Shown: positions 848-16,210 of the stretch, one piece after another
How the letters are laid out: the number at the start of each line of letters is the position of its first letter
Numbering within the stretch: the stretch's first letter is position 1
From: a virus
UHGV virus genome: UHGV-0188933
Length of the DNA stretch: 18,246 nucleotides
Reading direction: 5' to 3' (one strand)
The notes under the pieces: model-generated
Database searches by the model: none
What the model was told of the DNA's origin: nothing
The model's input: the letters and a program-made list of their open reading frames with translations, nothing else
Translations under genes and position numbers: made by a program

Positions 848-1856
848 TTTTTATGCGCCGCCCCATAGCATCGAGGCAGAGCAGGCGGTGATTGGTGGAT
901 TGCTTCTGGATGATGACAGCAGTGAGCGCGTCCAGAAAGTTCTGGCGATGCTGAAGCCTGATTCATTTTACAGCCGACCACACAAAATCCTTTTCGAAGA
1001 AATAACCAGAATGCACCGGGAGCAAAAGCCAGTAGATGGCCTGACGCTTTTCGATGAACTGGAGCGTAAATCGTTAACGGCGTCTGTTGGCGGTTTTGCT
1101 TATATCGCTGAGATCGCAAAGAACACGCCAAGCGCAGCAAACATCGTTGCCTATGCAATGCAGGTTCGTGAAACCGCAATGGAACGCTACGCCATCAACC
1201 GCATGACTGAAGCGACGGAATTGCTCTATTCCCGCAACGGAATGACTGCAACGCAGAAGTACGAAGCTATTCAGGCGATTTTCACGCAACTGACAGACCA
1301 TGCAAAAACCGGATCGCGTCGCGGCCTTCGCTCATTTGGTGAGGTCATGGAAGACTGGGTTAGCGACCTTGAGAAGCGATTTGACCCGTCAGGCGAACAA
1401 CGAGGAATGAGCACAGGGATCCCATCTCTGGACAGGATGCTGTCACCGAAAGGTCTGGTGAAAGGCTCTCTGTTCGTCATTGGCGCTCGCCCTAAGATGG
1501 GGAAAACGACGCTATACAGCCAGATGGCAATCAACTGCGCAGTGCATGAGAAAAAGCCCGCTCTGATGTTCAGTCTTGAAATGCCAGGCGACCAGATACT
1601 GGAAAAGCTGGTAGGACAGAAGTCAGGTGTTAACCCGAATATTTTTTACATTCCGGCGACAAATGACGCTGATGACGGCTATCAGGGTGATTACGATGGT
1701 GACTTCAACAGGGCGATCGAAACAGCCAATCGCTTGAGTGAAATCGACCTGCTTTACATCGACGACACGCCGGGATTATCTCTGGCTCAAATCGTCAGCG
1801 AAAGTCGTCGAATCAAGCGAGAAAAAGGATGTGTTGGCATGATTCTGGTCGATTAG
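837..1856 (+). pseudogene. DnaB-family replicative helicase, ended by in-frame TAG at 1854-1856; lacks the C-terminal part of the RecA-like domain
   Basis: N-terminal PPHSIEAEQAVIGGLLLD and SVGGFAYIAEIAKNTPSAANI are DnaB N-domain signatures; Walker A is GARPKMGKTT; the ORF stops at ...GMILVD*, right where DnaB has ...IDYLQLM. ATG at 837 is preceded by GAGGG. Same-frame codons continue 1857-2039 but do not look like DnaB. Confidence 0.75.
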
Positions 1857-2040
1857 AGAACGTGCGAGGAAAACAAGGTGATTGACCAAAATCGAAGTTA
1901 CGAACAAGGAAGTGTCGAGCGAGCTTTAACGTGCGCTAACTACGGTCAGAAGCTGCATGTGCTGGAAGTTCACGTGTGTGAGCACTGCTGCGCAGAACTG
2001 ATGAGCGATCCGAATAGCTCGATGCACGAGGAAGAAGACG

Positions 2041-2763
2041 ATGAATGAGTTAATAAATGGCAATGCCATCAAAATGACAAGCATTGAAATCGCTGAGTTG
2101 GTTGGTAAGCGTCATGACAATGTGAAACGTACCATCGAAACGCTGGCTAAAAATGGTGTTATCCGGCTTCCTCAAATTGAGGTTTCCGAAAGAATCAATA
2201 ACTTAGGGTTCAATGTTCAGTACGAGCATTACGTCTTCGAAGGCGAACAAGGTAAGCGAGACAGTATTGTCGTTGTTGCCCAGTTGTCGCCGGAATTCAC
2301 CGCTCGCCTTGTTGACCGCTGGCGAGAGCTTGAAGAAGCTGCGGTTAATATCCCCAAAACGCTACCAGAAGCGTTGCGCCTTGCTGCTGATCTTGCTGAG
2401 CAGAAAATGCAACTGGAAAACCAGCTCGCAATTGCCGCACCTAAAGTTGAGTTTGCCGATCGCGTTGGCGAGGCCAGCGGAATTTTGATTGGAAACTTTG
2501 CAAAGGTTGTCGGTATTGGTCCAAACAAACTGTTTGCGTGGATGCGCGATCACAAAATCCTTATTGCTTCAGGTTCCCGGCGCAATGTGCCAATGCAGGA
2601 ATATATGGATCGCGGCTATTTCACAGTGAAAGAAACAGCGGTCAATACAAATCACGGAATACAGATATCGTTCACCACAAAAATCACCGGGCGCGGTCAA
2701 CAGTGGCTGACCAGAAAGTTGCTCGATAACGGAATGCTGAAAGTAACAGGAGAGGCTGCTTAA
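2041..2763 (+). CDS. phage antirepressor (Rha-type N-terminal domain plus KilAC-type C-terminal domain)
   Basis: 240-aa ORF; N-terminus resembles Rha-family regulatory proteins and the C-terminal half resembles antirepressor KilAC domains. Start overlaps the upstream stop (ATGA). Confidence 0.6.
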   Translation: MNELINGNAIKMTSIEIAELVGKRHDNVKRTIETLAKNGVIRLPQIEVSERINNLGFNVQYEHYVFEGEQGKRDSIVVVAQLSPEFTARLVDRWRELEEAAVNIPKTLPEALRLAADLAEQKMQLENQLAIAAPKVEFADRVGEASGILIGNFAKVVGIGPNKLFAWMRDHKILIASGSRRNVPMQEYMDRGYFTVKETAVNTNHGIQISFTTKITGRGQQWLTRKLLDNGMLKVTGEAA

Positions 2764-3053
2764 TGGCTAACCTACGCAAAGAAGCGCGCGGCAGAGAATG
2801 CCAGGTACGTATTTACGGCGTATGCAATGGCAACCCTGAAACTACAGTTCTGGCACATTACCGGATGGCTGGAATTTGCGGAACGGGAATGAAGCCTGAC
2901 GACCTGATCGGCGCATGGGCTTGTAGCGCGTGTCACGATGAAATCGACCGACGCACCCATAATCTCGACAACAAAGACGCCAGGCTTTACCACCTCGAAG
3001 GCGTGATCAGGACGCAGGCGATACTGCTGAAGGAGGGGAAGATTAAGTCATGA
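2763..3053 (+). CDS. ybcO: DUF1364 nin-region protein, YbcO-like (putative nuclease)
   Basis: MANLRKEARGRECQVRIYGVCNGNPETTVLAHYR...CSACHDEIDRRTH matches my recollection of E. coli DLP12 YbcO nearly residue for residue, including the Cys/His pattern. Confidence 0.75.
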   Translation: MANLRKEARGRECQVRIYGVCNGNPETTVLAHYRMAGICGTGMKPDDLIGAWACSACHDEIDRRTHNLDNKDARLYHLEGVIRTQAILLKEGKIKS

Positions 3054-3412
3054 ACGAATATCAGTTTGTGCTTCCATACCCGCCGTCGGTGAATACCTAC
3101 TGGCGAAGACGGGGAAGCCAATACTACATCAGCGATAAAGGCCAGAAATACCGAAAAGACGTTCAGCAAATCATCCGCCAACTTAAGTTAGACATTTTCA
3201 CCAAATCACGACTCCGCATCAAAGTCATCGCAGACGTTCCAGACTCCCGCCGCCGCGACCTCGACAACATCCTGAAAGGTTTACTCGACTCCCTTATCCA
3301 CGCCGGATTTGCGGAAGACGACGAGCAATTCGATGACATTCGCGTAATTCGTGGCGTGAAAGTACCAGGCGGACGGCTTGGAATAAAAATCACCGAACTG
3401 GAGAACGTATGA
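3050..3412 (+). CDS. rusA: Holliday junction resolvase RusA
   Basis: 120 aa; LPYPPSVNTYW...DSRRRDLDNILKGLLDSL...GGRLGIKITELE follows the RusA pattern (PWPPSNN, RRRDLDN, GGRLELTITE). ATGA overlap with upstream gene. Confidence 0.85.
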   Translation: MNEYQFVLPYPPSVNTYWRRRGSQYYISDKGQKYRKDVQQIIRQLKLDIFTKSRLRIKVIADVPDSRRRDLDNILKGLLDSLIHAGFAEDDEQFDDIRVIRGVKVPGGRLGIKITELENV

Positions 3413-3603
3413 ACGCCACAATTCAAACGATACCAGAGCTTCTTATCCAGACACGAGGCAATCAGACCGAAGTGGCAAGGATGCTTTCCTGCGCAAGAGG
3501 AACAGTGCTTAAGTACAACCGAGACAGCAAAGGCGAGCGTCACGTAATAGTTAACGGCGTCCTGATGGTCAAACAGGGCAAGAGGGGAAGACGATGGGCA
3601 TAA
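3409..3603 (+). CDS. ninH: NinH-like protein
   Basis: 64 aa; TIPELLIQTRGNQTEVARMLSCARGTVLKYNRDSKGERHVIVNGVLMV resembles lambda NinH (TIPDMLVEAYGNQTEVARRLKCSRGTVRKY). Position between rusA and Q is as in lambdoid nin regions. Confidence 0.75.
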   Translation: MNATIQTIPELLIQTRGNQTEVARMLSCARGTVLKYNRDSKGERHVIVNGVLMVKQGKRGRRWA

Positions 3604-4082
3604 GAGAACTAAACCTCACCAAAGAGCAGCACGAGTGGCTGAATGGCTGGCTTGAACTGTGGGGGGCATGGGTTTATTCAGGTCGTCTTGAAAAGCGCAT
3701 GAGCAGCGTAATAGCGAAGTTCATGGAGAGCGTAGAGCCGGGAAGAGTTATGACAAGGCCAATGTGCAATGATGATGATGGAATGTTGATTTCTCAGGTC
3801 GTCGATTCCGTCATGTACATTGACAAGAAAGCCTTTGGCATCCTCCTCAGCTACTACGCCCATGGATCTTCCAAGCACGCCATTGCATCTTACTATCATC
3901 GCGTCGCAAGACCTCGCAAGATGTTATGCCGGGGCGGAGGGCGCATTCAAAAACCATCGCTCGCAACCTGTCGTCGGGAAGTTGACGAAATCCTCAATGC
4001 CTCGTTGTTTATGATTTACCCGGTTCTGGATAGTGCGTTTAAAAACCGGAAACGTGTAGAGAAAATTAAACATGTAGCATAG
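3594..4082 (+). CDS. late-gene antiterminator, Q-like
   Basis: 162-aa Cys-containing protein in the Q position (after ninH, before the lysis cassette). Call rests on synteny and size more than on recognised motifs. Confidence 0.55.
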   Translation: MGIRELNLTKEQHEWLNGWLELWGAWVYSGRLEKRMSSVIAKFMESVEPGRVMTRPMCNDDDGMLISQVVDSVMYIDKKAFGILLSYYAHGSSKHAIASYYHRVARPRKMLCRGGGRIQKPSLATCRREVDEILNASLFMIYPVLDSAFKNRKRVEKIKHVA

Positions 4083-4126
4083 AACGTGTTGACATCATTG
4101 AGCAAATGAGCAACACTATTCGCATA

Positions 4127-4168
4127 AGCTGCCGTTAGTGACTCTTAAGTTGCAACGGTGGCTTTTTT
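4127..4168 (+). terminator. hairpin plus T-run downstream of Q (possible short late-leader terminator)
   Basis: 10-bp stem (agctgccgtt / aacggtggct, two G-U pairs) with 17-nt loop, followed by TTTTTTATTT. A TTGACA hexamer lies at 4089-4094. Confidence 0.4.
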
Positions 4169-4172
4169 ATTT

Positions 4173-4247
4173 GGGTCAGTCGTATAAAGGTCATTACGGA
4201 AGGCTGTTAACCTTCTTATCGTGGTTCGAGTCCACGCTATCCCGCCA
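4173..4247 (+). tRNA. tRNA-Asn-like element (anticodon GUU), possibly degenerate
   Basis: Perfect T-arm cgtgg-TTCGAGT-ccacg, perfect anticodon arm gaagg-CTGTTAA-ccttc (U33, anticodon GTT, A37), U8, A14, GG in D-loop, 3' CCA at 4245-4247. Acceptor stem has two mismatches (gggtcag vs ctatccc) and D-stem one. Confidence 0.45.
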
Positions 4248-4283
4248 AACATGCTGGTTTAGCTCCAATGGTAGAGGTGGTAA

Positions 4284-4709
4284 ATGCCGAGCAAAGATTA
4301 CTATCTTAATCGAAGGGCTAGGCTTGCTAAGACCGTGGAAAAGTTGGGTGGTCGTTGCGCGAGTTGCGGATCCGAATATTCGCTTCAGTTTGACCACATA
4401 GACCCTTCCACCAAATCAGCAAATGTAAGCGAGATGCACTATCACTCAGATTAGGTGTTTTATGCTGAGGTTGAAAAGTGCCAACTACTATGTTCTGCAT
4501 GCCACATTCAGAAAACCAAATTTGACCTTAGCTACTTAGTAGCTGGTGAGCTGAATGGTATGAGCAAGCTAACAATGGACAGCGTCCAGTTCATCAGAGA
4601 AAACTACATTCCACGACATAAGGTTTATGGAGCCAGAGGGCTAGGGAGAATGTTTGGTGTAACACATCAAACAGTGCTTTCAGCCTTAAATGGCGAAAGC
4701 TGGAAATAA
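4284..4709 (+). pseudogene. HNH endonuclease interrupted by in-frame TAG at 4452-4454
   Basis: Frame from ATG 4284 reads ...CASCGSEYSLQFDHIDPSTKSANVSEMHYHSD*VFYAEVEKCQLLCSACHIQKT...; the C-x2-C, DH, N and C-x2-CH elements of one HNH motif are split by the stop. Good SD (gaggtgg) upstream. Confidence 0.7.
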
Positions 4710-5126
4710 GCTGCGCGTCAGAGGTTCGATTCCTTTGCCCGCTCCAGTAAAAGCTTTCCAGTCTGCGATGATGGGTTCCCCGGAGTGACTGGAAAGCGAC
4801 CTGGTTTTGAATGGGCGCTGCTTTTTGCAAAATTGCTGTGTGAAAATACTGACCTTTGGGTTCAGCGCTCATCCAAAAGCATCACGTGAATTCACCAACG
4901 CTCATGTACTCTCCAGGAAACAATAAGTGATTCTGAAAAGTTCCGGTTAGATATTGCCCCGGTCACCGGATGATTTTATCTTTTGGTTCGTGGTGAATCC
5001 CCCTATGCGGCGGGGCGTCCAGTCAAACTTTTTTGTCCAGGTTTGTTTGCGCGGAACTAGTCGGCTGGGGCTGTTCCACCGGGAGGCACCCGGCGCCACC
5101 TCCTTGACGGTATTGTTATTTTTCAT

Positions 5127-5153
5127 GCCTGTTCGTCCGAGCAGGCTTTTTTT
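5127..5153 (+). terminator. intrinsic terminator about 410 bp upstream of holin (tR'-like)
   Basis: 8-bp stem (gcctgttc / gagcaggc with one G-U), 4-nt loop, then TTTTTTT. Confidence 0.6.
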
Positions 5154-5563
5154 GCCCGCATTATCTTCATTGAAAACTGGCAACTCAGAGAATCATCCAA
5201 ATTAAAAAAGCAGCAACGAGAGCGATTACTAATACATTCTTCGCTTTTTCTCTTCTGCTGGCCTTCACAAAAGGATTCACTATCCGGCAGTGGCTACACA
5301 CAAGTGATTCTGGGTTAATTAACTTTCCGCAGTAGGGGCAGGGCTTGATAATCATTGGTACTAATTAAGTTGTGAGAACGTAGTCTCATTTAACCACATT
5401 TATCGAGTTGTTTTACTAATGGTCTAGTTATTTCAGACATATTCATCAATTTCAGGCTCACGGGAATCATCCGCTACGTGCTTTGTTGATAAATCCAGCC
5501 CGTGAAGCCTGACCCTTTTCAAACACACACACAGCACCATCCGGAAAATCGGAGGTGAGGCCT

Positions 5564-5887
5564 ATGAAAATGCCATACAAACAAGATTTCATCGCTGCGC
5601 TACTTGCCGCCAAGGAGCAGGGTATTGGTGCAATGCTGGCTTTTATCATGGCGTATCTGCGTGGTCGCTATAACGGCGGCGCGGTAACAAAAACGCTAAT
5701 TGATGCGCTGATGTGCGCGATGATTGCCTGGTTCGTTCGTGACCTTCTGGACTTTATCGGCCTGAGCAGCAACCTCGCCTACATAGCCAGCGTCTTTATT
5801 GGATACATCGGCACCGATTCGATCGGCAATCTTATTAAAAAACTTGCAGCAAAAAAGGCGGGAGTTGACGATGCAAACCAGTCCTGA
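5564..5887 (+). CDS. S: class I holin, lambda S family, with dual-start motif
   Basis: [64 protein letters not shown]... is close to lambda S ([39 protein letters not shown]...). ATG-AAA-ATG with SD ggagg upstream. An in-frame GTG at 5555 gives the longer ORF in the track. Confidence 0.9.
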
Positions 5888-6320
5888 CGGAATTGCTCTG
5901 ATAAAAAAATTTGAAGGTTGTCGGCTGACTGCTTACCCCGACCCCGGAACGGGAGATGCGCCGTGGACCATCGGCTATGGCTGGACCCATCCGGTTGACG
6001 GAAAGCCAGTAAAGCGCGGTATGACTATCGACCAGCAAACCGCTGACAGGCTTCTGAAAACAGGGCTTGTTGGTTATGAGAATGACGTGCTGAAAGTTGT
6101 CAGGGTGAAGCTGACACAAGGCCAGTTCGACGCACTGGTGTCGTTCGCTTACAACGTTGGGTCGCGTGCTCTTTCCACATCTACACTGCTGAAAAAGCTG
6201 AATGCTGGCGATATAAAAGGCGCGGCAGATGAATTTCTGCGCTGGAATAAATCAGGCGGAAAGGTGATGCCGGGGCTCACGAATCGCCGCAAGGCAGAGC
6301 GAGCTCTGTTCCTGTCATGA
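5871..6320 (+). CDS. endolysin, T4-lysozyme-like (GH24) muramidase
   Basis: Protein from ATG 5871: [40 protein letters not shown]... with E-x8-D-x5-T catalytic spacing; ends [11 protein letters not shown] like P22 gp19-type lysozymes. Start overlaps holin end. Confidence 0.85.
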
Positions 6321-6784
6321 TTAGCGCACTGGTTAAGCGTTACTGGCTGCAGTTGCTGGTGCTGGCGTTAATCGGCGCACTGGCTTTCTTCGTGAACCAC
6401 TACCGCGACAACGCCATCACTTACAGAGACCAGCGCGATAAGGCCACTGAGAAACTCCTCCTGGCGACCGCCACCATTAAAGACATGCAGACCCGCCAGC
6501 GTGATGTCGCTGCACTGGATGCCAAATACACCGGAGAACTGGCTGATGCGAAAGAAACCATTGAGCGTCTGCATAGCGATGTCATTGCTGGCCGTAAGCG
6601 CCTGCAAGTCGCCGCCACCTGTGCAAAGTCAACGACCGGAGCCAGCAGCATGGGCGATGGAGAAAGCCCAAGACTTACAGCAGATGCTGAACTCAATTAT
6701 TACCGTCTACGAAGTGGAATCGACAAGATAACCGCGCAGGTTAACTACCTGCAGGAATACATCAGGACGCAATGCCTGAAATAA
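6317..6784 (+). CDS. Rz: i-spanin Rz
   Basis: 155 aa with N-terminal TM segment ([16 protein letters not shown]) and coiled-coil-like remainder, immediately after the endolysin (ATGA overlap). Confidence 0.8.
6546..6731 (+). CDS. Rz1: o-spanin Rz1 (lipoprotein) embedded in the +1 frame of Rz
   Basis: [33 protein letters not shown]...: signal peptide with lipobox VSAC and proline-rich mature part, wholly inside Rz. Confidence 0.75.
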
Positions 6785-6816
6785 TTTTTTTGCAAATCAC
6801 AAAGTCCATTTAATGA

Positions 6817-6838
6817 GCCTCGCGATGCGGGGCTTTTT
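6817..6838 (+). terminator. intrinsic terminator after lysis cassette (first of two)
   Basis: gcctcgc-gat-gcggggc, 7-bp stem, followed by TTTTT. Confidence 0.65.
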
Positions 6839-6845
6839 GCAATAA

Positions 6846-6870
6846 ATGCGTACCGCAACGCATGTTTTTT
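6846..6870 (+). terminator. intrinsic terminator after lysis cassette (second of two)
   Basis: atgcgt-accgca-acgcat, perfect 6-bp stem, then g + TTTTTT. Confidence 0.65.
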
Positions 6871-6985
6871 ACACCGAACCTGCCCCTTTGGAATGGGCCT
6901 TTGAGGATACCAGTTAGTGCTGGCGAGCCTCGGTGGGCTGGTTTCCTGTGCGGCAAAGGTTCATTTCAAAGAGTAGGTACACGCT

Positions 6986-7483
6986 ATGAAATCATTAACC
7001 CTCTTCAATCAACCAATTCGTATCGGTGAAGATGGCATGATCTGCCTCACTGATATGTGGAAAGCTAGTGGTAAAAGTGAATCTGAATCGCCTTACCACT
7101 ACCTGCGAAACAAGCAGACCAAAGAGTTCTTAGCCGAGCTGGAGAAAAACCACGAATCTGTGGTTTTTACTGAGCGCGGTGTACACGGTGGAACATATGG
7201 CGGGAAGTTTGTTGCTTACGATTATGCGGCTTGGTTAAACCCCGGGTTCAAGTACGCGGCCTATAAAGTCCTCGATGACTACTTCACCGGAGAACTTCAG
7301 CATCGCAACAGCTTAAGTGCGCAGCTCAACATGAAATGTCATGAGTTTGACCAGAAGAAAGACATGGCGAGCTTCTGCGGACAAGGGCTGGCAGCATGGC
7401 GCTATACGAAGCCAGTGTTGGTCGCTGAGATTAACTCCCTGGCTAACCAGCTGCAGATTACGATCCCCGGGCTTCCGGGATGA
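6986..7483 (+). CDS. KilA-N domain protein
   Basis: MICLTDMWKASGKSE...KEFLAELEKN...GVHGGTYGGKFVAYDYAAWLNPGFKYAAY matches the KilA-N pattern (TDxWKA, GGT, YAxWLxPxF). Confidence 0.7.
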   Translation: MKSLTLFNQPIRIGEDGMICLTDMWKASGKSESESPYHYLRNKQTKEFLAELEKNHESVVFTERGVHGGTYGGKFVAYDYAAWLNPGFKYAAYKVLDDYFTGELQHRNSLSAQLNMKCHEFDQKKDMASFCGQGLAAWRYTKPVLVAEINSLANQLQITIPGLPG

Positions 7484-7737
7484 GTGATCGTGTCATTGAA
7501 TGCGCCTCCAGAGCGGGGCGCGACTTCTCAGAGTTCATGAAAGGCGAGAAGGGCATGAGGGAAGCATTGGCCTCGGTGGATGAGTTTGGCGAGCAGCTGC
7601 GCCTCAACGGCTGTGTCAATCATCACTTTGTTAGCTACATGATGCGGAACTCGATCATGCAGGCATTCATGGACATGGCAAAAGCCGAGAGGAAAGAAGA
7701 GCGCCGGCGTAAGCGAGCGGAAGCAAAAGCGAAGTAG
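7480..7737 (+). CDS. hypothetical protein with basic Lys/Arg/Glu-rich C-terminal tail
   Basis: 85-aa ORF, ATGA-coupled to the KilA-N gene; no recognised domain. Confidence 0.4.
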   Translation: MSDRVIECASRAGRDFSEFMKGEKGMREALASVDEFGEQLRLNGCVNHHFVSYMMRNSIMQAFMDMAKAERKEERRRKRAEAKAK

Positions 7738-8089
7738 CCATTACAAAGCCCATCTACGGGTGGGCTTGATAATGAAACCGTGATTTACATCCCCACAATC
7801 CGGGTATGTAAAAGATAGTTCAGGCGAGAACAGATTTAACTAAATCTGTGCACCACCAGTTACGGCAGTACCACGAAGCAACCCAAGCCAGTAAGTGGGG
7901 AAATAACACTGGCAGCCACTGAAAGATGAACCTCCAGCCTTATGGCAAAAAAGATTCTTTGTGGTGGCGGGCTGATGGAAAGACATCGGTTATTGCAGAG
8001 GCCATTCAATGAGTGGTCTCGACAATGGCTTATACCCTGCACGGGATAACTTAACTGATATCCCTTTTAACGGATAAACGGAGCCAACA

Positions 8090-8245
8090 ATGGCAAAGCT
8101 CACCGACAAACAAGAGCTGTTTGCCCGTGAGTACCTGAAAGATTTAAACGCCACACAGGCAGCTATCAGGGCGGGTTGGGCAAAAGCTCAACAACATGCC
8201 GTATTACCGCGCGAAACAATACGCGCAGATGCTTGGCATCGATGA
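8090..8245 (+). pseudogene. terminase small subunit, N-terminal stub (51 codons)
   Basis: MAKLTDKQELFAREYLKDLNATQAAIRAGW... is the conserved N-terminal helix-turn-helix of Terminase_2-type small subunits; frame ends at 8243-8245 after diverging. SD ggag 8 nt upstream. Confidence 0.7.
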
Positions 8246-9833
8246 AAACACGCTGATGGCGATGCGGCGCGGCATGAATGGCTTTACCGCCGATTACCAG
8301 TCGATGCTGCAAAAGACAGGGTTCAACGCTGATAAAGCGGCTGTTCAGTCCAACAAATTCATGACGTCCATGCGCGGGCTTACGTCGCTGTTCGGCATCA
8401 TGCGGGACAAGATCGGCTCAAACCTCGCTGGTGGCCTGGCTGGTTCGCTGGACAGCCTGCGGCGGCGCATCCTCGACAATTTCCCGAAGATTGAAGAGAC
8501 GCTGACCAGAGTTATTAAAGGCGTGATCTGGCTTGCGAACGCATTCACGAGAATGGCGTGGCGGCTGATACAGGGCGCTGGCTCTGTCATCGACTGGTGG
8601 AAGCGTCTTGACGATGGCAGTAAAAATCTGCTGAAAATATTCGGTGCTCTACTGGTCGCATGGCGTCTGCTTAATTCTGCGTTCCTGAAATCCCCGATTG
8701 GAATTATCACCACACTGATTCTGGCGATCGGATTGCTGTACGACGATTACCAGACGTGGAAAGAGGGCGGTAAAAGCCTGATTGACTGGTCCAAATGGCA
8801 GCCAGAAATTGAGCAGGCAAAGAAGGTGTTCAAGTGGCTGCGCGATAAGTTTCTGGAGCTCAAGGACAACCTCGGCGGCTGGAAAAATACGCTCACCATC
8901 CTGTTTGGCTTTCTGGCTGGTGCGAAGCTGGTCTCCATGCTCACTGGCATCGGGCGACTTGTCGCCGGATTTATGGGGCTTGGTAAGGCAATTGGCGGCT
9001 CTATTGGTGGGCTGGGTAAGCTGGCGCAGGGGATCGCACAGCTGGCAATCAAGAATCCATGGTTGCTTATGTTCATTCCTGCCAACAATACGCCGACCAC
9101 CAGTGAAGAAATGGCGTCGATTGGCGGTATAGGCAGCAATATCGTACCTGAAAGGCAGCAGGCATATGAGGCGCTGAGAAAGGAAAATCCCGGCAAAGAC
9201 TTTTTCACTGATGAGCAAATCCAGCGAAAAATTCAGGAGATGGGACTGGAGCCGGAGCAGCGAGCGCAGTCGGTTAAGCGACCTCAGGCGACGGCCCAGG
9301 GCAAGGTATTGCTCGACTGGATGGGGCCAATGTTCAATAAACTGGAGTCGCTTTATCAGCTGCCAGCTGGCCTGTTGAAAAGCGTGGCGATCACCGAGTC
9401 GGGTGGTAACCAGTTCGCCATATCCGGCGCAGGCGCGAAAGGACTGTTTCAGTTTATGGATGGCACGGCGCGCGACATGGGCCTGCGTGGGAATGATGTA
9501 TTCGACCCGGAAAAGTCAGCTCAGGCAGCCGCTAAGTACCTCAGCCAGCTGTTGCGGCAGAACGGCGGAGACCTTAGCAAAGCACTGGCATCATATAACT
9601 GGGGGATCGGGAATGTTAAGCGTTATGGAATGGGGCTAATGCCGCAGGAAACGCGCAACTACATTCCGAAAGTGATGAGCAATATGCCCACCAGCGCCCC
9701 GGTGATTCAGCAGGAAACGAACATTAACATCCACGGCGTTTCCGATCCGCGCGAGGCTGCCCGTTTGACTGTTGACCGTCAAAAGGGCGTGAATTCACAG
9801 TTAACCCAGCAACTCCCCGCAGGACCGAGATAA
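8196..9833 (+). CDS. tail tape measure protein, C-terminal portion, with lytic transglycosylase (SLT) domain; N-terminal part absent
   Basis: Typical TMP low-complexity Gly/Ala/Leu segments (LAGGLAGSLDSL, GKAIGGSIGGLGKLAQGIAQ). C-terminal ITESGGNQFAISGAGAKGLFQFMDGTARDMGL...ASYNWG is an SLT signature. Frame opens only at 8148, just inside the terS stub. Confidence 0.75.
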   Translation: MPYYRAKQYAQMLGIDENTLMAMRRGMNGFTADYQSMLQKTGFNADKAAVQSNKFMTSMRGLTSLFGIMRDKIGSNLAGGLAGSLDSLRRRILDNFPKIEETLTRVIKGVIWLANAFTRMAWRLIQGAGSVIDWWKRLDDGSKNLLKIFGALLVAWRLLNSAFLKSPIGIITTLILAIGLLYDDYQTWKEGGKSLIDWSKWQPEIEQAKKVFKWLRDKFLELKDNLGGWKNTLTILFGFLAGAKLVSMLTGIGRLVAGFMGLGKAIGGSIGGLGKLAQGIAQLAIKNPWLLMFIPANNTPTTSEEMASIGGIGSNIVPERQQAYEALRKENPGKDFFTDEQIQRKIQEMGLEPEQRAQSVKRPQATAQGKVLLDWMGPMFNKLESLYQLPAGLLKSVAITESGGNQFAISGAGAKGLFQFMDGTARDMGLRGNDVFDPEKSAQAAAKYLSQLLRQNGGDLSKALASYNWGIGNVKRYGMGLMPQETRNYIPKVMSNMPTSAPVIQQETNINIHGVSDPREAARLTVDRQKGVNSQLTQQLPAGPR

Positions 9834-10435
9834 TGGATATTTTATCAGCGATTTTTCGCCAGCAATCCCGGCGAATTGGCCTGCTGATCCCCAGCGTGGT
9901 CGTTTCCGAAAAGCATTCTGATGCGCTCGAAATTACTGAGCACCCGGTGGAGAAGCCAACAACGAATAGCGCGTCGGGTTTCATCGCCGATCATGCGTAT
10001 AAGCGCCCCAGCGAAGTCACGATGGAATGCGGCTTCGCAGGTGGCGGTTCGTTGCTGGACTTCATTGATACATCGTCAATCGGCCTCAGCGCCGGACTTA
10101 GCCCGAAAGAGACCTATCAGCAACTACTGGATCTCCAGTCCTCTCGGGTGCCGTTCGATGTAGTGACCGGAAAGCGGGTTTACAGCAATATGCTGGTGCG
10201 AGCCATCGAGGTGACAACGGATAAAACCAGCGAGAACGTGCTGAACTGCACGCTTACCCTGCGTGAAGTGATCATGTCGCAGACGCAGAGCGTTAGCGTT
10301 GCAGATAAATCAGATATGCAGGATGGCGTCAGCACATCGGCGGTGCAGAATTCCGGGATGAAATCCACTACACCGCCAAACGAATCCTTGCTGAGCCAGC
10401 TGGGCGGAAGCGTTACATCAGCATTCGGGGGATGA
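9833..10435 (+). CDS. tail/baseplate assembly protein (family uncertain)
   Basis: 200-aa ORF translationally coupled to the TMP stop; position between TMP and hub. Confidence 0.4.
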   Translation: MDILSAIFRQQSRRIGLLIPSVVVSEKHSDALEITEHPVEKPTTNSASGFIADHAYKRPSEVTMECGFAGGGSLLDFIDTSSIGLSAGLSPKETYQQLLDLQSSRVPFDVVTGKRVYSNMLVRAIEVTTDKTSENVLNCTLTLREVIMSQTQSVSVADKSDMQDGVSTSAVQNSGMKSTTPPNESLLSQLGGSVTSAFGG

Positions 10436-10436
10436 T

Positions 10437-10742
10437 ATGCAGTTTAACGAAATACCGCTTTCTCCTGACAATCAGCAGTTCCGCGTTTTGCTGGGCAATA
10501 CCACGTATACACTCAGGATCATCTGACGTGATGCGGCTGGCTGGATTATGGACGTGATGGATAGCGGCGGTGCCGCGCTTCTCTCTGGCGTACCTCTACT
10601 GACCGGCGTAAACCTTTTACGACAATATCCACAGCTTGGCATTGATGGCGCGCTGGTGGTGGCGACCGATAAGGGCGCACCAGACGAGCCCACCAAAACC
10701 AACCTCGGCACATACAGCCACCTCATTTTCGTACAGGAGTAG
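10437..10742 (+). pseudogene. small tail protein interrupted by in-frame TGA at 10524-10526
   Basis: Single frame reads MQFNEIPLSPDNQQFRVLLGNTTYTLRII*RDAAGWIMDVMDSGGAALLSGVPLLTGVNLL...VQE, verified codon by codon; the TGA would be Trp with one G-to-A change. Confidence 0.5.
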
Positions 10743-10744
10743 AA

Positions 10745-11812
10745 ATGTCTCTTAACTGGATGCGCCATTTTGAGCTGCAACTGTTGGACCAGAACGGGCA
10801 GGGCGTTTCCCTGTCTGACTTTAAGGTCACGTTCCAGATCGAGTGGGCAGACACACGCTGGCCACGCGTGGCGAACGTGAAAATTTACAACCTTTCGACC
10901 GATACCACGAACAAGATACTGGGGCAGGAGTTTGCAAAAATTCGCATCATTGCCGGGTATGACGGTATTGCGCCGGATGTTGATGCGAGCCAGGTTGGTG
11001 TCGCCCGGGAGATTTCACCAGACCAGGTAGGGCAGGTGAACGGTCAGAACTACGGCCTGATATTTGACGGTGATATTCGCTTCACCGTCACCGGGAAGGA
11101 CAACATCACCGATTCCTGGGTGCTGATTCAGGCCATCAGTAACCACGAAGCGTTCCTCTACGCGACTACCATCACCACGCTTGCCGCTGGTTATACCGTT
11201 GCGGACCTGCACCGGGCGACTATGCAGGATTTCAACGCGTTCGGCGTGACGCAGGGCATTACCGGTGACTTTCCTGATACCGTGTTTCCTCGTGGCCGTG
11301 CGATTTATTCATCCACCCGTAACGTGATGGATAATATTGCTGCGCAGTGCAAAGCGACATGGCAGCTGGTGGATGGTCAGGTCCAGATGGTGCCGGAGGA
11401 TAAATATATTCACGAAGCCATTGTGTTGAATGCCGATACTGGCCTGATCGGTATGCCGCAACAAACGATGGGCGGCGGAGTAAACGTGCGGTGCCTGATA
11501 AACCCAAACATCCGTATTAATGGTCTTATCCAGCTCGATCAGGCTTCGGTGTACCGCGCCGCGCTCGGTAATAGCGAAATAGCACAGTCGCCCGGTCGCA
11601 TCACCGAAACAGAAGAGAACGGCAACCGCGTACTGACCGGCACAACGTCACAGGCTGCCAGCATTGCGACAGATGGCGTTTATATCGTCAAAGCTATCGA
11701 TTATACTGGTGACACCAGAGGTCAGGCGTGGTACATGGATTTGATGTGTTTTGCGCGTGGGGCTCGTGACCTGATTAGCCAGTCGACTATAGCTCGCTCA
11801 GGAGGAAATTAA
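10745..11812 (+). CDS. baseplate hub-like tail protein (Mu gp44 / P2 gpD position)
   Basis: 355-aa ORF immediately upstream of the spike/gp46/gpJ/gp48 module; assignment by synteny and size. Confidence 0.4.
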   Translation: MSLNWMRHFELQLLDQNGQGVSLSDFKVTFQIEWADTRWPRVANVKIYNLSTDTTNKILGQEFAKIRIIAGYDGIAPDVDASQVGVAREISPDQVGQVNGQNYGLIFDGDIRFTVTGKDNITDSWVLIQAISNHEAFLYATTITTLAAGYTVADLHRATMQDFNAFGVTQGITGDFPDTVFPRGRAIYSSTRNVMDNIAAQCKATWQLVDGQVQMVPEDKYIHEAIVLNADTGLIGMPQQTMGGGVNVRCLINPNIRINGLIQLDQASVYRAALGNSEIAQSPGRITETEENGNRVLTGTTSQAASIATDGVYIVKAIDYTGDTRGQAWYMDLMCFARGARDLISQSTIARSGGN

Positions 11813-12703
11813 GTGGGTACAAATAAGAACGGAATTCGATATAGCGCACTTTTTCTTTCCGGGTTGCTCTTATCCGGGGGCGCGAGTGCAGGCTTTAATT
11901 CCGCGCAGAACGCTGAGTACAAAAGACGTCCAGGATGGCAGCCGATAGTAATTTTATCGACAGATGATTGTCAGACATGGAAATCTAAAGGGAAGTCACT
12001 AATTGACTGGAGTGGCGAGATCTGTGGTCCTGACGGGTTGATTAAGGCAATCAATAAAAAGCCGGAGAATATACCAGCTTTTTATGCTGCATATCATGAG
12101 TACGGCACAGGTGGAGTTAGGGCTATCGATGTAAGAGATAATTCTCAGCTAAATTATCTCAATTTTGTAAATGATTTAGCTAAGAAACTTTCTTCTTCGG
12201 CTGTTGTATTAAAGATTTATGATGATTATATCATTGATAGAAAACCCATGGGGCTTGCAGAGGTTTCACGAGAAAATTTTGTAAAACAGCTAAATGAGTT
12301 ATCGCTGAAGCAACCTGCCATCTATCAAAAAATGAACGACGTAGCCAAGGCTGATTACGAGAAAAGTAGTAATGTTCACAGTAACGAAAAGCTTGGCGTG
12401 AATTACAAAACAGTCTGTGGTCCTTATACGATTGATCTGTCTTCTGCTGATGGTTGGGCCAGAATTAATGGCGCAAAACCAGAGACGCAAAAAATTAGCC
12501 CAATCGGCTCTGGTGGTAGCACCAAAGGGGAACCGGATAACATCAAGATGGAGTGGATGGCTGCCACTAATCAACCCGGCCGCTGGGTTGGGCTTGAGTA
12601 CATCAAGCGCAACGGAAAAGCTATTCTCAACGCACAGTGGTTGCAGGCCAGCATAGACGCGCCGCGCCAGTATGCAACATACGACTGCCGAAAAGTAAAA
12701 TAG
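11813..12703 (+). CDS. cargo (moron) protein, 296 aa: signal-peptide-like N-terminus and a TMP-like motif; function unknown
   Basis: GTG start 7 nt after GGAGG. N-terminus MGTNKNGIRYSALFLSGLLLSGGASAG looks like a signal peptide. Residues DDCQTWKSKGKSLIDWS parallel DDYQTWKEGGKSLIDWS in the TMP. Remainder is visibly AT-rich relative to flanking tail genes. Confidence 0.55.
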   Translation: MGTNKNGIRYSALFLSGLLLSGGASAGFNSAQNAEYKRRPGWQPIVILSTDDCQTWKSKGKSLIDWSGEICGPDGLIKAINKKPENIPAFYAAYHEYGTGGVRAIDVRDNSQLNYLNFVNDLAKKLSSSAVVLKIYDDYIIDRKPMGLAEVSRENFVKQLNELSLKQPAIYQKMNDVAKADYEKSSNVHSNEKLGVNYKTVCGPYTIDLSSADGWARINGAKPETQKISPIGSGGSTKGEPDNIKMEWMAATNQPGRWVGLEYIKRNGKAILNAQWLQASIDAPRQYATYDCRKVK

Positions 12704-12721
12704 CCCGCCAGATAGGCGGGC
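12703..12721 (-). terminator. GC-rich hairpin between the convergent cargo genes (terminator for the minus-strand gene)
   Basis: gcccgcc-agata-ggcgggc, 7-bp stem; on the minus strand it is followed by a T-rich tract (ctattttacttttc). Confidence 0.55.
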
Positions 12722-12726
12722 ATGCG

Positions 12727-13017
12727 TCAAAAATATTGAGCTTTAATTATAATAAACACAATAATTACGAACAGGATGTTTCTAATTATTTTTTGCTTAT
12801 GAGTAAGTTGTTTTTTTTCTGTCGATTTCCCGGGAGAGTAAAGGTTAGTGGTATGCGACAGCCCCGTGCCGGGAAGGCCATTTGTCATCTTTACGCCTTT
12901 TTTCCCGATGTTAATGGTGGAACCTTTACCACCAATTGAAGTGCTTACTCCGCTTTTACTAATGTTGATCGCGAGTCCGGGCGCAATCCGGATTCTTTTA
13001 CGAAATCTAAATCCCAT
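12727..13017 (-). CDS. DUF4236-like small protein with C-terminal transmembrane helix
   Basis: MGFRFRKRIRIAPGLAINISKSGVSTSIGGKGSTINIGKKG...PGTGLS resembles what I recall of the DUF4236 N-terminal signature; C-terminus IIRNILFVIIVFIIIKAQYF is hydrophobic. AT-rich, convergent with the cargo gene. Confidence 0.55.
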   Translation of the reverse strand: MGFRFRKRIRIAPGLAINISKSGVSTSIGGKGSTINIGKKGVKMTNGLPGTGLSHTTNLYSPGKSTEKKQLTHKQKIIRNILFVIIVFIIIKAQYF

Positions 13018-13204
13018 TTGTTACTCCTGTAGTCAATAATGCGATGGTGCAGGTCCACTCTATGGCGGCTTCATGGCTGAAATTGATTTTCAATGCTTAC
13101 TTGTTGCAAACATATCCTAATACACATTGTGAATGTGTGCCATTGCAGCGGAAAAGCCTTACTTCACACTGATGTAGCTTAGTTACTAAGAGATAATTGA
13201 TACC

Positions 13205-13228
13205 AAACCAGCTTCGGCTGGTTTTTTT
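13205..13228 (+). terminator. strong intrinsic terminator 12 bp upstream of the spike gene start
   Basis: aaaccagc-ttcg-gctggttt, perfect 8-bp stem with tetraloop, then TTTT (7 T in a row counting the stem end). Confidence 0.7.
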
Positions 13229-13239
13229 ATGGGGGTTTT

Positions 13240-13980
13240 ATGCCAATTCCAACTCAATCACAGATCGGCGGTGAGCAGCAGACCGCGCAGGCCATTGCCG
13301 ATTCGGTGTCTACCCAGATGCGCGTAGCGATGCCCGGCATCATTCAGTCGTTCGATCCTGACACTGTTACCTGCACGGTAGAGGTAGCGCTTCGCGGTAT
13401 CGTTGGCGATGGCTCCACCGAATTAAAACCGCTGGTGGATGTGCCGGTTATCTTCCCGCGTGGCGGCGGTTGTACGCTGACTTTTCCGGTTAAAGAAGGC
13501 GACGAGTGCCTGCTGCTCTTTGCCGACCGTTGCATCGATTTCTGGTGGCAGAGCGGCGGCGTGCAGGAGACCGTCGACCCGCGCCAGCATGACTTATCTG
13601 ATGCGTTCGCCATCGTTGGCCCACAGTCGCAAGCACGGAAAATCAGCGGTATCAGTACCAGCGCCGCGCAGCTGCGAACCGATGATGGTGCGGCGTTTGT
13701 AGAAGTCGCCGCAGGACATAACATCACCATTAAAACACCGGGCCAGCTTACAGCTACGGCTGAAGGTGGAACGACAATCACATCCCCGACTATCACGCTG
13801 AACGGCAACGTAACGATTAATGGCAACTTGTCTCAGGGAATGGGCGAAAGCGGCGGTACTGCGACGATGCTTGGGCCGGTGACGGTAACGAATGACGTAA
13901 CAGCTTCTGGTATCAGTGTCGCCACGCATAAACATGGCGGAGTACAGACTGGCGGGGGAACTACCGGAGGGCCGCAATAA
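13240..13980 (+). CDS. baseplate spike / assembly protein V (Mu gp45, P2 gpV-like)
   Basis: N-terminal OB-fold-like region (GIIQSFDPDTVTCTVEV...PLVDVPVIFPRGGG...GDECLLLFADR) and Gly/Thr-rich beta-helical C-terminus (TITSPTITLNGNVTINGNL...). Confidence 0.8.
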   Translation: MPIPTQSQIGGEQQTAQAIADSVSTQMRVAMPGIIQSFDPDTVTCTVEVALRGIVGDGSTELKPLVDVPVIFPRGGGCTLTFPVKEGDECLLLFADRCIDFWWQSGGVQETVDPRQHDLSDAFAIVGPQSQARKISGISTSAAQLRTDDGAAFVEVAAGHNITIKTPGQLTATAEGGTTITSPTITLNGNVTINGNLSQGMGESGGTATMLGPVTVTNDVTASGISVATHKHGGVQTGGGTTGGPQ

Positions 13981-14333
13981 TGCGATACCGTCGCGAAGAT
14001 ACTGAAGGCGATTACACTTTCGGCCAGGGTGACGATACTTTCCTTATCGACAGTCCGGAATGTGTCGCCCAGGCCGTAAAAACCCGTTTCGAGCTGTGGC
14101 GCGGTCAGTGGTTTCTCGATCTGACGGAAGGCACGCCGTATGTTCAGTCAGTGCTTGGGAAGCAGCGATCAGATGTCTACATCCTGGCTATACGCGAACG
14201 CATACAGGATACACCGGGCGTTCTGTCGATTCTTTCCTTCGATACCAATTATGACGGCACCAGCCGTCGCGTCACCTTCACTTCCTCCATTGACACAATC
14301 TACGGCCAGACGACTGTAACAAGCGAGGCATAA
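13980..14333 (+). CDS. baseplate protein, Mu gp46 / gpW-like
   Basis: 117 aa, ATGA-coupled between spike and gpJ-like gene. Confidence 0.65.
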   Translation: MRYRREDTEGDYTFGQGDDTFLIDSPECVAQAVKTRFELWRGQWFLDLTEGTPYVQSVLGKQRSDVYILAIRERIQDTPGVLSILSFDTNYDGTSRRVTFTSSIDTIYGQTTVTSEA

Positions 14334-15533
14334 ATGGCTTTGAACCTCGACACGCTGGGGCTATCGGCAACGGTAACCGCCCAGGGGATTAGTGCGCCTG
14401 ATTACCAGACAATCCTAGATACACTGACCAGCTATTTCAGGCAGATTTACGGTAGTGATGCCTACCTCGAACCAGACAGCAAAGACGGGCAGATGGTCGC
14501 GCTGGTGGCTCTTGCCGTGCATGACGCTAACAACACCGCTATCGGGATCTACAACTCTTTTTCACCGACGACAGCGCAGGCCGCAGCGCTTAGCAGCAAT
14601 GTGAAAATTAACGGGATCACGCGAAAAGTAGCGACAAACTCTACTGCTGACCTTCTGTTAACCGGTACGGCAGGCACGACTATCACGAATGGCTCCGCAC
14701 GGGATAAAAACGGCATTATCTGGAATTTTCCCGCAAGTGTAGCGATCGGCGTTGATGGTACTGTGCTGGTGACGGCCACATGTGCGAATAGCGGTTCGGT
14801 TGCGGCGCTGGCCGGGACTATTACCACTATCAACACCCCGACCCGAGGTTGGGTGTCGGTAACCAATCCAGTTGCGGCTACTGTCGGTTCACCAGCCGAA
14901 ACCGACGCAGAGCTGCGCATTCGGCAGGGGCAAAGCGTCGCGCTACCATCGATCACACCGTTTGAAGGTGTCGACGGTGCTATCGCTAATGTTGCTGGCG
15001 TGACACGTCACAAACTATATAAGAACGATACTGGGGCAACCGACAGCAACGGGCTGCCGCCACACTCTATTTCCGCCATCGTCGATGGAGGGGATGTTAC
15101 CGAGATAGCCCAGACCATCAGGGGGAATAAAGGGCAGGGAACCGCAACTTACGGTAAAACTTCTGTCACAGTGCCGGATACTTATGGTAATCCTCACGTC
15201 ATCAGTTTTTCGCGCTCTACCGATGTGCCAATTTTCGTAGCCATTACCCTGAAAGTTTTTACCGGCTATACCTCTCAAATCGGCGAGCAGATTAAACAGG
15301 CTGTTGCCGATTATATAAATGGCCTAACAATTGGCGACGACGTTCTGCTGAGCCGTATTTATTCCCCGGCAAACCTCGGCGTTGTGAGCGGCGGGAATGC
15401 CCGCTATTACGATATTACCGACCTGCTGATCGGTAAGTCGTCTGGCAGCGTATCGGCATCAAACATTGATATTGCCTATGATGCTTCAGCGTCCTGTAGC
15501 ACCGCGAATATCAGTATCACGGTGACCTCATGA
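14334..15533 (+). CDS. baseplate J-like protein (Mu gp47 / P2 gpJ family)
   Basis: 399 aa; size and position between gp46-like and gp48-like genes. Confidence 0.7.
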   Translation: MALNLDTLGLSATVTAQGISAPDYQTILDTLTSYFRQIYGSDAYLEPDSKDGQMVALVALAVHDANNTAIGIYNSFSPTTAQAAALSSNVKINGITRKVATNSTADLLLTGTAGTTITNGSARDKNGIIWNFPASVAIGVDGTVLVTATCANSGSVAALAGTITTINTPTRGWVSVTNPVAATVGSPAETDAELRIRQGQSVALPSITPFEGVDGAIANVAGVTRHKLYKNDTGATDSNGLPPHSISAIVDGGDVTEIAQTIRGNKGQGTATYGKTSVTVPDTYGNPHVISFSRSTDVPIFVAITLKVFTGYTSQIGEQIKQAVADYINGLTIGDDVLLSRIYSPANLGVVSGGNARYYDITDLLIGKSSGSVSASNIDIAYDASASCSTANISITVTS

Positions 15534-16210
15534 GCAAATACACCGAACTGATCACTAACTACCACGCTACCAAGCCACTCTTTTTTGACCATATAGATCT
15601 GAGCACCTGCCCGCTGATTGATGTGTCCAGCACTATGTCAGGGCTTATAACAGCCTTCGATATCGATACTGCTGTCGGTGTACAGCTCGACATCCTCGGT
15701 CTGTGGATCGGACGCAGTCGCATAGTCAGCCAGCCAATTAGCGGAGTTTATTTCAGCTTGGACACTGACGGGCTTGGGTATGACCAGGGCATCTGGCAAG
15801 GGCCATATGATCCTGATTCTGGCTATACGACGCTAAGCGATGAGACGTACCGCATCATTCTGAAAGCGAAAATCGCTATCAACAACTGGGACGGTCGGAA
15901 CGACTCTCTGCCTCCCATCCTTGACGCTGCTACCGCAGGCTCAGGCCTGAGGATGCAGATCGTCGACAACCAGGACATGACGATTTCGGTCTGGGTTTTC
16001 CCTGAAACTGATATTTCTGATGTGTCTCTCGAACTGATCGCCGCTATCAAACAGGGCTATCTCACCGTTAAATCAGCTGGCGTATGGGCCGGTGATGTTG
16101 AAACGCCTTCGGTAGAAACACCGTCAGAAGGCTCTAAATTCTTTGGGTTTGATATGGATAACGAATACATCGGCGGGTTCGATGTTGGAGCATGGGGGAC
16201 AATACTCTAA
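15530..16210 (+). CDS. tail protein, Mu gp48 / YmfQ (DUF2313) family
   Basis: 226 aa, coupled upstream of the tail fibre gene, as in Mu-like and e14-like baseplate modules. Confidence 0.65.
   Translation: MSKYTELITNYHATKPLFFDHIDLSTCPLIDVSSTMSGLITAFDIDTAVGVQLDILGLWIGRSRIVSQPISGVYFSLDTDGLGYDQGIWQGPYDPDSGYTTLSDETYRIILKAKIAINNWDGRNDSLPPILDAATAGSGLRMQIVDNQDMTISVWVFPETDISDVSLELIAAIKQGYLTVKSAGVWAGDVETPSVETPSEGSKFFGFDMDNEYIGGFDVGAWGTIL

Follow-up and report, generated by a model that had tools for sequence, protein, structure and literature searches.

The window analysed here is the whole 18,246-nucleotide stretch of UHGV virus genome UHGV-0188933, and the gene under study is a 141-codon reading frame at window positions 4284-4709. 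We conclude that this frame is probably a free-standing, homing-type HNH gene, inserted in the late-leader tRNA-Thr(UGU) of a lambdoid prophage and inactivated there by a nonsense mutation. Judged against its intact orthologues, 4284-4709 is a pseudogene, with a premature stop that leaves a product devoid of C70, C73, H74 and the predicted helix-turn-helix (HTH) domain. Positions are those of the window unless another sequence is named.

An HNH reading frame interrupted by an amber codon

4284..4709, plus strand: HNH-HTH endonuclease gene, 141 codons, a pseudogene in the window (translation, Pfam, PHROG, intact orthologue WP_001568783.1)
4452..4454, plus strand: amber codon TAG, Ser57 to stop through C>A at 4453 (alignment with relatives)

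Translation of 4284-4709 yields one 141-codon frame with a sole internal stop, followed by the terminal TAA. Upstream of the TAG at codon 57 lie C25-x2-C28, D37-H38 and N47, and downstream of it follow C66 and LLC70-x2-C73-H74. With Ser57 restored, the repaired protein scores 23.4 bits against the Pfam HNH family PF01844 (curated cut-off 21.4 bits) in two stretches flanking the stop; the two halves as translated, taken separately, reach 13.5 and 13.4 bits, i.e. below the cut-off. The PHROG family phrog_4234 'HNH endonuclease' aligns with residues 11-84 of the repaired protein in a single stretch across the stop (E = 1.8e-21). By its PF01844 score, the repaired product is a member of the HNH nuclease superfamily. 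The original prediction had described a single HNH frame with these residues, split by a stop, and had named the lack of an HNH alignment across that stop as evidence against itself. Translation, phrog_4234 and the intact orthologues described below all bear out the single frame, and the alignment of the read-through protein does span the stop.

No NCBIfam family was found to match the HNH-HTH protein, and a sequence-profile search of the PDB returned the GVE2 HNH protein as its sole match (E 0.43). A second HNH-labelled gene is present in the nin region of the window (2763-3053). Its product, a 96-residue DUF1364 protein (phrog_131 'HNH endonuclease', E 1.2e-49), bears no relation to that of the gene at 4284-4709.

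Predicted architecture of the intact protein

An AlphaFold model was made for the intact orthologue P0001 (96% identical) from a 36-sequence alignment, with a mean predicted local distance difference test score (pLDDT) of 90. The model comprises a helix (residues 4-20), a strand carrying Asp37-His38 (34-38), a second helix (56-63), and a strand (66-70) followed by a helix (71-86) that together bear C70, C73 and H74; a disordered linker (87-97) then leads to a three-helix bundle (98-135). The catalytic histidine is located on strand 1, the metal-binding histidine on the helix, and the CxxC...CxxC pairs form a zinc site, as expected of a beta-beta-alpha-metal nuclease. According to the model, residues 1-86 thus form a zinc-bound beta-beta-alpha-metal nuclease domain, which a flexible linker connects to an HTH DNA-binding domain at the C terminus (98-135). 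The GVE2 HNH structure (PDB 5h0o) is a structural neighbour of the protein.

In this predicted fold, strand 1 precedes the amber codon and strand 2 follows it. The earlier suggestion that the stop lies inside the HNH motif hence holds, with the TAG placed between the Asp-His strand and the second strand and helix that carry Cys-x2-Cys-His. The 56-residue truncated product retains the first cysteine pair and Asp-His; since it lacks the second cysteine pair, His74 and the entire HTH domain, the gene would be dead.

Intact orthologues and repeated decay of the gene

The alignment of close relatives comprises 21 sequences with 91-99% protein identity, drawn from E. coli genomes, one NCBI draft and 17 IMG/VR proviruses, Enterobacter included. 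Codon 57 is TCG in all 21, and the 141-residue gene is intact in 20, the remaining one being interrupted by an insertion sequence (IS) element. In E. coli KL53, L6-21 and PEC422 the same gene is annotated as an intact 141-residue coding sequence, 'HNH endonuclease' (WP_001568783.1). Compared with the commonest allele, the window copy carries A17T (4332), S57* (4453) and T139S (4699), with no synonymous changes of its own. The TAG is a single recent C>A substitution (TCG>TAG) specific to the window lineage, in agreement with the proposal that the insertion was inactivated after it had been made. A ratio of nonsynonymous to synonymous polymorphism (pN/pS) of 0.06-0.5 among the intact alleles indicates that the intact protein has been under purifying selection.

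The TAG allele is found a second time in the metagenome contig ERZ773108 NODE-2449 (L102; 15.9 kb, ~13x coverage), which is 100% identical to window 1853-16640 (14.8 kb), TAG included. This makes a private sequencing error unlikely. No match to the allele was obtained among GTDB representative genomes, the metagenome scan being the search that did reveal one, and an exact-sequence look-up of the 56-residue N-terminal fragment returned no record.

Two further disabling events were observed. In GCA_019373185.1 (L016, 3285-4415) an IS3-family element cuts the gene after residue 88. A deletion of 1,035 bp, corresponding to window 4379-5413, is present in strain C 236-04A and in ECONIH5 (L007, 1829-1830, equivalent to window 4378/5414). 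The ECONIH5 derivative retains the first 95 nt of the HNH gene and is 97.1% identical to the window in the Q/tRNA-Asn region and 99.65% in the lysis cassette. The gene has hence been disabled independently in three ways among close relatives, by an amber codon, an IS3-family insertion and a deletion of ~1 kb.

The gene lies inside a tRNA-Thr gene

4253..4276, plus strand: 5' remnant of tRNA-Thr(UGU), acceptor strand and D arm, nt 1-24, phage-21 allele (24/24 identical to phage 21)
4273..4283, plus strand: ribosome-binding site (RBS) AGAGGTG (4273-4279) with a 4-nt spacer, spanning the tRNA/cassette junction (read from the sequence)
4707..4747, plus strand: 3' remnant of tRNA-Thr(UGU), from U36 on, ENT1 allele (identity to ENT1, homology to HK639)

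In phage 21 and most relatives, tRNA-Asn is followed after 5 nt by tRNA-Thr(UGU). The homology of the window to phage 21 breaks off exactly at 4276, within this tRNA-Thr. On the other side of the reading frame, 4707-4741 agrees at 35/35 positions with the tRNA-Thr(UGU) of Enterobacter phage ENT1 (nt 35-69), beginning at the last anticodon base, such that the TAA stop of the HNH gene is also U36-A37-A38 of the tRNA. The RBS is partly made of the tRNA D arm and is retained in all occupied alleles. The empty ENT1 allele reads GCCGGTCTAGTTCAGTGGCAGA-ACGGCAGCCTTG-TAAGCTGCGCG..., and the occupied allele of an IMG/VR provirus (L029) reads ...GGCAGA-GGTGGAAAATG...(ORF)...GGAAA-TAAGCTGCGCG..., where ORF denotes the open reading frame; both flanks are identical between the two. 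The cassette thereby amounts to a bare 426-nt ORF plus 7-8 nt upstream that supply the RBS spacer, and it replaces 12 nt of the tRNA (nt 24-35). With these nucleotides replaced, the tRNA is destroyed and splicing is unable to restore it. The tRNA-like flanks noted in the original prediction are thus real pieces of tRNA-Thr, and the location can be refined to the inside of a tRNA-Thr(UGU) gene.

Both ARAGORN and Rfam call tRNA-Asn (4173-4247) as the only tRNA in the window. Run with or without introns, ARAGORN revealed no intact tRNA concealed across the 3' end of the HNH ORF, of the kind seen in distant relatives, and manual pairing fails. In Rfam searches for truncated matches the 5' remnant gave noise and the 3' remnant a weak tRNA-clan match (E 1.5). 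Covariance models are not suited to pieces this short, and the remnants were therefore identified by their exact match to intact tRNAs.

The 3' remnant is itself a chimera. In E. coli alleles, including the window, its acceptor end has been swapped to a tRNA-Gly-type end (...GCCCGCTCCA), followed by an HK639-type leader; homology to HK639 starts at 4723 and continues downstream. At 4736-4747 the sequence is of Thr type until ...TTTGCCCG and then of tRNA-Gly type, CTCCA (compared with HK639, L002 1515-1530, and L020-L032). Enterobacter-type alleles retain the true Thr end GCCCGGCACCA. By this comparison, the Gly-type acceptor end is a second rearrangement, and lambdoid modules seem to be joined by recombination at short conserved stretches of tRNA.

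A separate observation concerns the 3' part of the HNH ORF, where the D-loop pentamer and anticodon-stem heptamer of the tRNA-Thr of ENT1 recur, unchanged in order, as CAGTG...CAGCCTT at 4672-4687. The heptamer CAGCCTT (4681-4687), which matches the deleted tRNA segment, was considered as a remnant of a target duplication and rejected; it is probably due to chance, because it codes for a conserved HTH helix (..TVLSAL..) and is absent from homologues of 57% identity.

Presence and absence of the cassette

The Q/tRNA region is present in 845 of 5,426 complete E. coli genomes, of which 4 have the full HNH gene and 2 a deletion derivative. The cassette was found in none of 50,697 phage records. 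An uninterrupted tRNA-Thr occupies the same place in phage 21, in ENT1 and in ~840 E. coli prophages that share the Q/tRNA-Asn region. This Q-to-S comparison with relatives substantiates the earlier claim of an independent insertion. Presence or absence of the gene at one precise site in otherwise homologous genomes is the polymorphism expected of a homing gene.

The same junction is found in two types of tRNA-Thr (the slash marks the junction). In the phage-21 type, seen in the window, KL53, OZ510750 and L017, it reads GCTGGTTTAGCTCCAATGGTAGAG/GTGGTAA, and in the ENT1 type, comprising all other alleles, GCCGGTCTAGTTCAGTGGCAGAG/GTGGTAA. The two types of upstream remnant differ at 5/23 positions, the last difference lying 5 nt from the junction. 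With 4 nt of identity at the junction, homologous recombination of the ordinary kind cannot put a crossover there. A break in a recipient tRNA gene at the junction, extended on an HNH-carrying template, would explain how the junction came to be shared. Furthermore, recipient-type sequence is kept to within 5 nt of the junction with donor-type sequence to the right, an indirect hint of co-conversion. The upstream neighbour of the occupied tRNA-Thr varies, being tRNA-Asn, tRNA-Gly or tRNA-Phe. The insertion disrupts a conserved tRNA-Thr sequence that could be the target of the enzyme, which would confer self-immunity.

An HNH family located in phage tRNA clusters

A search of 5.8 billion proteins returned 343 relatives, and roughly 450 were found in IMG/VR. 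The closest ones beyond the clade are P0003 and P0004, 57% identical and again 141 residues long, whose genes open tRNA arrays on phage-like contigs (15 tRNA genes at the P0003 locus and 6 at that of P0004). Before each of the two genes lies a tRNA cut short at the D arm (P0003, ...CTCAGTTGGTAGAGC/AAGGAGATTACATG; P0004, ...TTAAGTGGTATAGC/AAGGAAGTATTATG), and in both cases an intact tRNA-Thr(UGU) begins at the first base after the TAA.

Among 63 more distant IMG/VR relatives (L034-L096, 36-57% identity), 27 lie in tRNA arrays, and in ~20 the 3' end of the ORF overlaps or abuts the 5' end of the next tRNA. ORFs that run into a tRNA stop on tRNA nucleotides, often U8-A9-R10 or U36-A37-A38, in the distant relatives as well as in the cultured phages JohannJBalmer, where a 'putative homing endonuclease' overlaps tRNA-Lys, and Crossroads, where gp113 overlaps tRNA-Leu. 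The last codons of these proteins are consequently tRNA sequence. A truncated tRNA ending at the D arm (...GGTAGAGC) directly precedes the HNH RBS in several distant homologues, including L011 (2965-3501) and L103 (1465-2001). D-arm-truncated tRNAs also lie directly 5' of the RBS in L073 (~1958-1997) and L088 (~1905-1937), and in L062 the tRNA is truncated after the anticodon. Six lineages, the window clade included, share the D-arm left boundary; three lineages are linked to tRNA-Thr(UGU), namely the window clade and the two homologues of 57% identity.

HNH genes are the most widespread coding sequences in the tRNA arrays of mycobacteria and mycobacteriophages and have been proposed to diversify tRNA repertoires (PMC5966550, PMC6409571); both papers cite Pope et al. 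2014 on array HNH genes. Judging from these homologues, the window gene belongs to a family habitually located in phage tRNA clusters, a kind already known. The recurrent D-arm junction predicts a tRNA-gene target for this widespread and uncharacterised HNH family.

Prophage context

3594..4082, plus strand: Q antiterminator, phage-21 type (phrog_943, E 4.9e-90; annotation via phage 21)
4089..4172, plus strand: predicted late promoter pR' (-35 TTGACA, 4089-4094) with Q-binding element, start of transcription near 4124 and terminator tR' (transferred from phage 21)
4173..4247, plus strand: tRNA-Asn(GUU) (ARAGORN; Rfam tRNA, 51 bits, non-standard acceptor pairs; alignment of five relatives)

The HNH gene was originally placed between Q and the lysis genes, and that position is confirmed, with Q at 3594-4082 and holin, endolysin and Rz at 5555-6784. 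Region 3579-4276 is 97.9% identical to phage 21; the pR'/tR' coordinates were carried over from OL657228, the record of phage 21, with 99.1% identity at this place. A sigma-70 promoter scan of 4000-5600 returned none, and hence no internal HNH promoter, although the scan also missed the known pR'. Read-through of the late transcript, with the HNH gene on it, is presumably under the control of Q. The tRNA-Asn has a U4.U69 mismatch in its acceptor stem that is common to all relatives; a window-specific G>A at 4239 turns C5-G68 into C5.A68, a second mismatch in that stem, and this phage tRNA may be impaired too.

To the left of the HNH gene lies the phage-21-type Q module, and 4277-5567 is a leader common to KL53 and L6-21. 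Window 3389-5567 is 99.3% identical to KL53, up to a sharp mosaic boundary at 5567, where the holin gene starts. Downstream, the lysis cassette (5414-6838) matches that of ECONIH5 at 99.65% identity and is unrelated to that of KL53. By these alignments the HNH gene sits on a mosaic boundary, and it fits published observations that nuclease genes mark the boundaries of exchange (PMC10448857). The leader between the HNH gene and the holin also contains a full-length match to the gammaproteobacterial small RNA STnc100 of Rfam (4965-5157; 71.7 bits compared with a gathering score of 47), which ends in a strong terminator-like hairpin (5127-5146). STnc100 is absent from ECONIH5 because of the 1-kb deletion.

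Downstream of holin, endolysin and Rz follow a Rha-like gene and then a stub of terS (8090-8175), of which the initial ~28 codons alone remain; at 8175 the stub is fused to an internal part of an SLT/tape-measure gene (8176-9833). Compared with the intact prophage of E. coli S1, 11.8 kb are absent, i.e. the rest of terS, TerL, portal, head and tail shaft. The terS/tape-measure junction was found in none of the complete E. coli genomes collected; it is present in the metagenome contig L102. The prophage is defective.

Proposed mechanism and alternative explanations

In the model we favour, the intact HNH gene would be transcribed only late, from pR' under Q antitermination, given its position 3' of the phage-21-type pR'/tR' and the lack of a promoter of its own. 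The HTH domain would direct binding of the enzyme to DNA, and in co-replicating relatives without the HNH gene the enzyme would cut or nick uninterrupted tRNA genes close to the boundary of D arm and anticodon stem. Repair off the HNH-carrying genome would then copy the cassette together with downstream DNA, the carrier itself being immune with its own target disrupted. In the window, C>A at 4453 would end translation after residue 56 and leave the gene dead, which fits a prophage without head genes.

A broader and distinctly tentative extension is that the 141-residue HNH-HTH clade, and perhaps the wider family, are tRNA-gene-specific homing endonucleases that might recognise the D arm and cut at the D-arm/anticodon-stem boundary; in lambdoid phages they could home into the late-leader tRNA-Thr and so promote leader/lysis exchange at the Q/lysis boundary. 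We regard this as possible, with the balance tilted somewhat against it. If true, the family would be an HNH counterpart of the GIY-YIG enzyme SegB, with a tRNA-Thr sacrificed for homing. An enzyme that cuts tRNA genes at this point would also help to explain the shuffling of tRNA clusters and adjacent modules between phages.

Several other accounts of the locus were weighed. That the intact protein is an accessory phage nuclease (a packaging helper similar to the HNH protein associated with the terminase in HK97-type phages, an agent of recombination or tRNA-cluster shuffling, or a weapon against competitors) riding with the lysis-leader module is in keeping with the purifying selection on intact alleles, with the constant company of the same downstream leader in E. 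coli, and with the proposal that array HNH genes diversify tRNA repertoires (PMC5966550). We nevertheless consider it unlikely. Phage 21, ENT1 and >99% of related E. coli prophages do without the gene, which has no adjacent terminase (that of KL53 lies ~4 kb downstream, past the lysis genes) and destroys a tRNA gene with no function added; moreover, the nuclease-plus-HTH plan and the presence/absence pattern at a single nucleotide position typify homing endonuclease genes. The gene might alternatively still be functional, the TAG being an assembly or sequencing error or being read through by an amber suppressor or leaky termination: there is one disabling change only, with no frameshift or deletion, the remaining ORF is 99.3% identical to the intact allele, and TCG>TAG is of the class that a serine-inserting suppressor corrects. 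Against this stand the identical TAG in the independent ERZ773108 NODE-2449 record, the lack of a suppressor tRNA in the window, whose sole tRNA is tRNA-Asn, and signs of general decay, i.e. two more amino-acid changes, the damaged tRNA-Asn acceptor stem and the 11.8-kb head-gene deletion. A gene that is still functional is accordingly quite improbable.

The tRNA pieces on either side of the ORF, with a 3' junction in the anticodon loop, the site of group I introns in bacterial tRNA genes, raise the question of a self-splicing group I intron from which the tRNA would still be made. An Rfam search of 3900-5700 at E<=1 returned just tRNA-Asn, STnc100 and a weak anti-hemB match, with no intron family, and an intron core cannot fit into ~7 nt before the ATG and 0 after the stop. 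In addition, tRNA nt 24-35 (12 nt) are missing, ARAGORN with introns allowed finds no tRNA across the insert, and the remnants in the window derive from different tRNA-Thr alleles with unpaired acceptor strands. With neither an intron core nor exons that rejoin to a complete tRNA, a group I intron-encoded endonuclease was rejected, and we regard an intron here as very improbable indeed. Least credible, to the point of being negligible, is the idea that the two halves are separate, unrelated ORFs with a chance likeness to HNH proteins. Either half alone does stay under the Pfam cut-off, but the phrog_4234 alignment passes over the stop as a single stretch (E 1.8e-21), and 20 intact 141-residue orthologues have a sense codon at that position.

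An inactivated homing-type HNH gene inside tRNA-Thr(UGU) is the reading we retain. For annotation, this means that 4284-4709 should be given as one HNH pseudogene, with 4253-4276 and 4707-4747 as remnants of the disrupted tRNA-Thr, rather than as a pair of small ORFs beside stray 'tRNA-like' DNA. The life cycle of a homing-type gene can be followed here in compact, natural form, from the invasion of a conserved site to decay by several independent routes in close relatives.

Comparison with known systems

HNH genes of the HK97 gp74 type are found beside terS/terL and assist cos cleavage. The window gene, located upstream of the lysis genes, with an extra HTH domain, dispensable and polymorphic, is unlike these. 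Assignment to the terminase-associated type was rejected on adjacency, the gene lying between Q and the holin, with the KL53 terminase ~4 kb off. The contrast with terminase-linked HNH genes drawn in the original prediction is therefore valid but beside the point, given that the family typically resides in phage tRNA arrays, for which the present location is not unusual.

I-HmuI and I-TevI are modular homing endonucleases in which a nuclease domain is joined by a linker to a C-terminal HTH; they are larger and mostly intron-encoded. The HNH-HTH protein resembles them in its predicted small catalytic domain, flexible linker and HTH DNA-binding domain (from the model and the structural neighbours of the HTH). 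It differs in that a sequence relationship is undetectable outside the HNH core and no intron is present at the window locus.

The closest parallels in sequence are array HNH genes such as gp113 of the Mycobacterium phage Crossroads and bas62_0256 of the Escherichia phage JohannJBalmer, with an HNH core 46-51% identical and the shared motifs LGGxCxxCGS...FDHID...KCQLLCxxCH. Both lie within same-strand tRNA clusters, packed tightly against tRNA genes. The array genes are situated between intact tRNAs of long arrays in large lytic or temperate phages, with 3' ends that overlap the next tRNA. The window copy, in contrast, is a pseudogene that takes the place of part of a tRNA, and the cluster around it, in a late leader of lambdoid type, comprises 2-3 tRNAs. 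No biochemical characterisation of array HNH genes was found in the literature searched.

The working model for such a gene is SegB, a GIY-YIG free-standing homing endonuclease of the T4 tRNA cluster that recognises the conserved T-psi-C motif and cuts within tRNA genes; many tRNA genes are potential targets, and SegB drives preferential inheritance of the tRNA region (PMC2330249). The window gene is likewise a free-standing nuclease gene in a phage tRNA cluster. It differs in being HNH rather than GIY-YIG, in junctions that indicate the D-arm/anticodon-stem boundary rather than T-psi-C, and in that segB interrupts no tRNA gene. The activity of SegB has been demonstrated, whereas that of the HNH-HTH protein is inferred.

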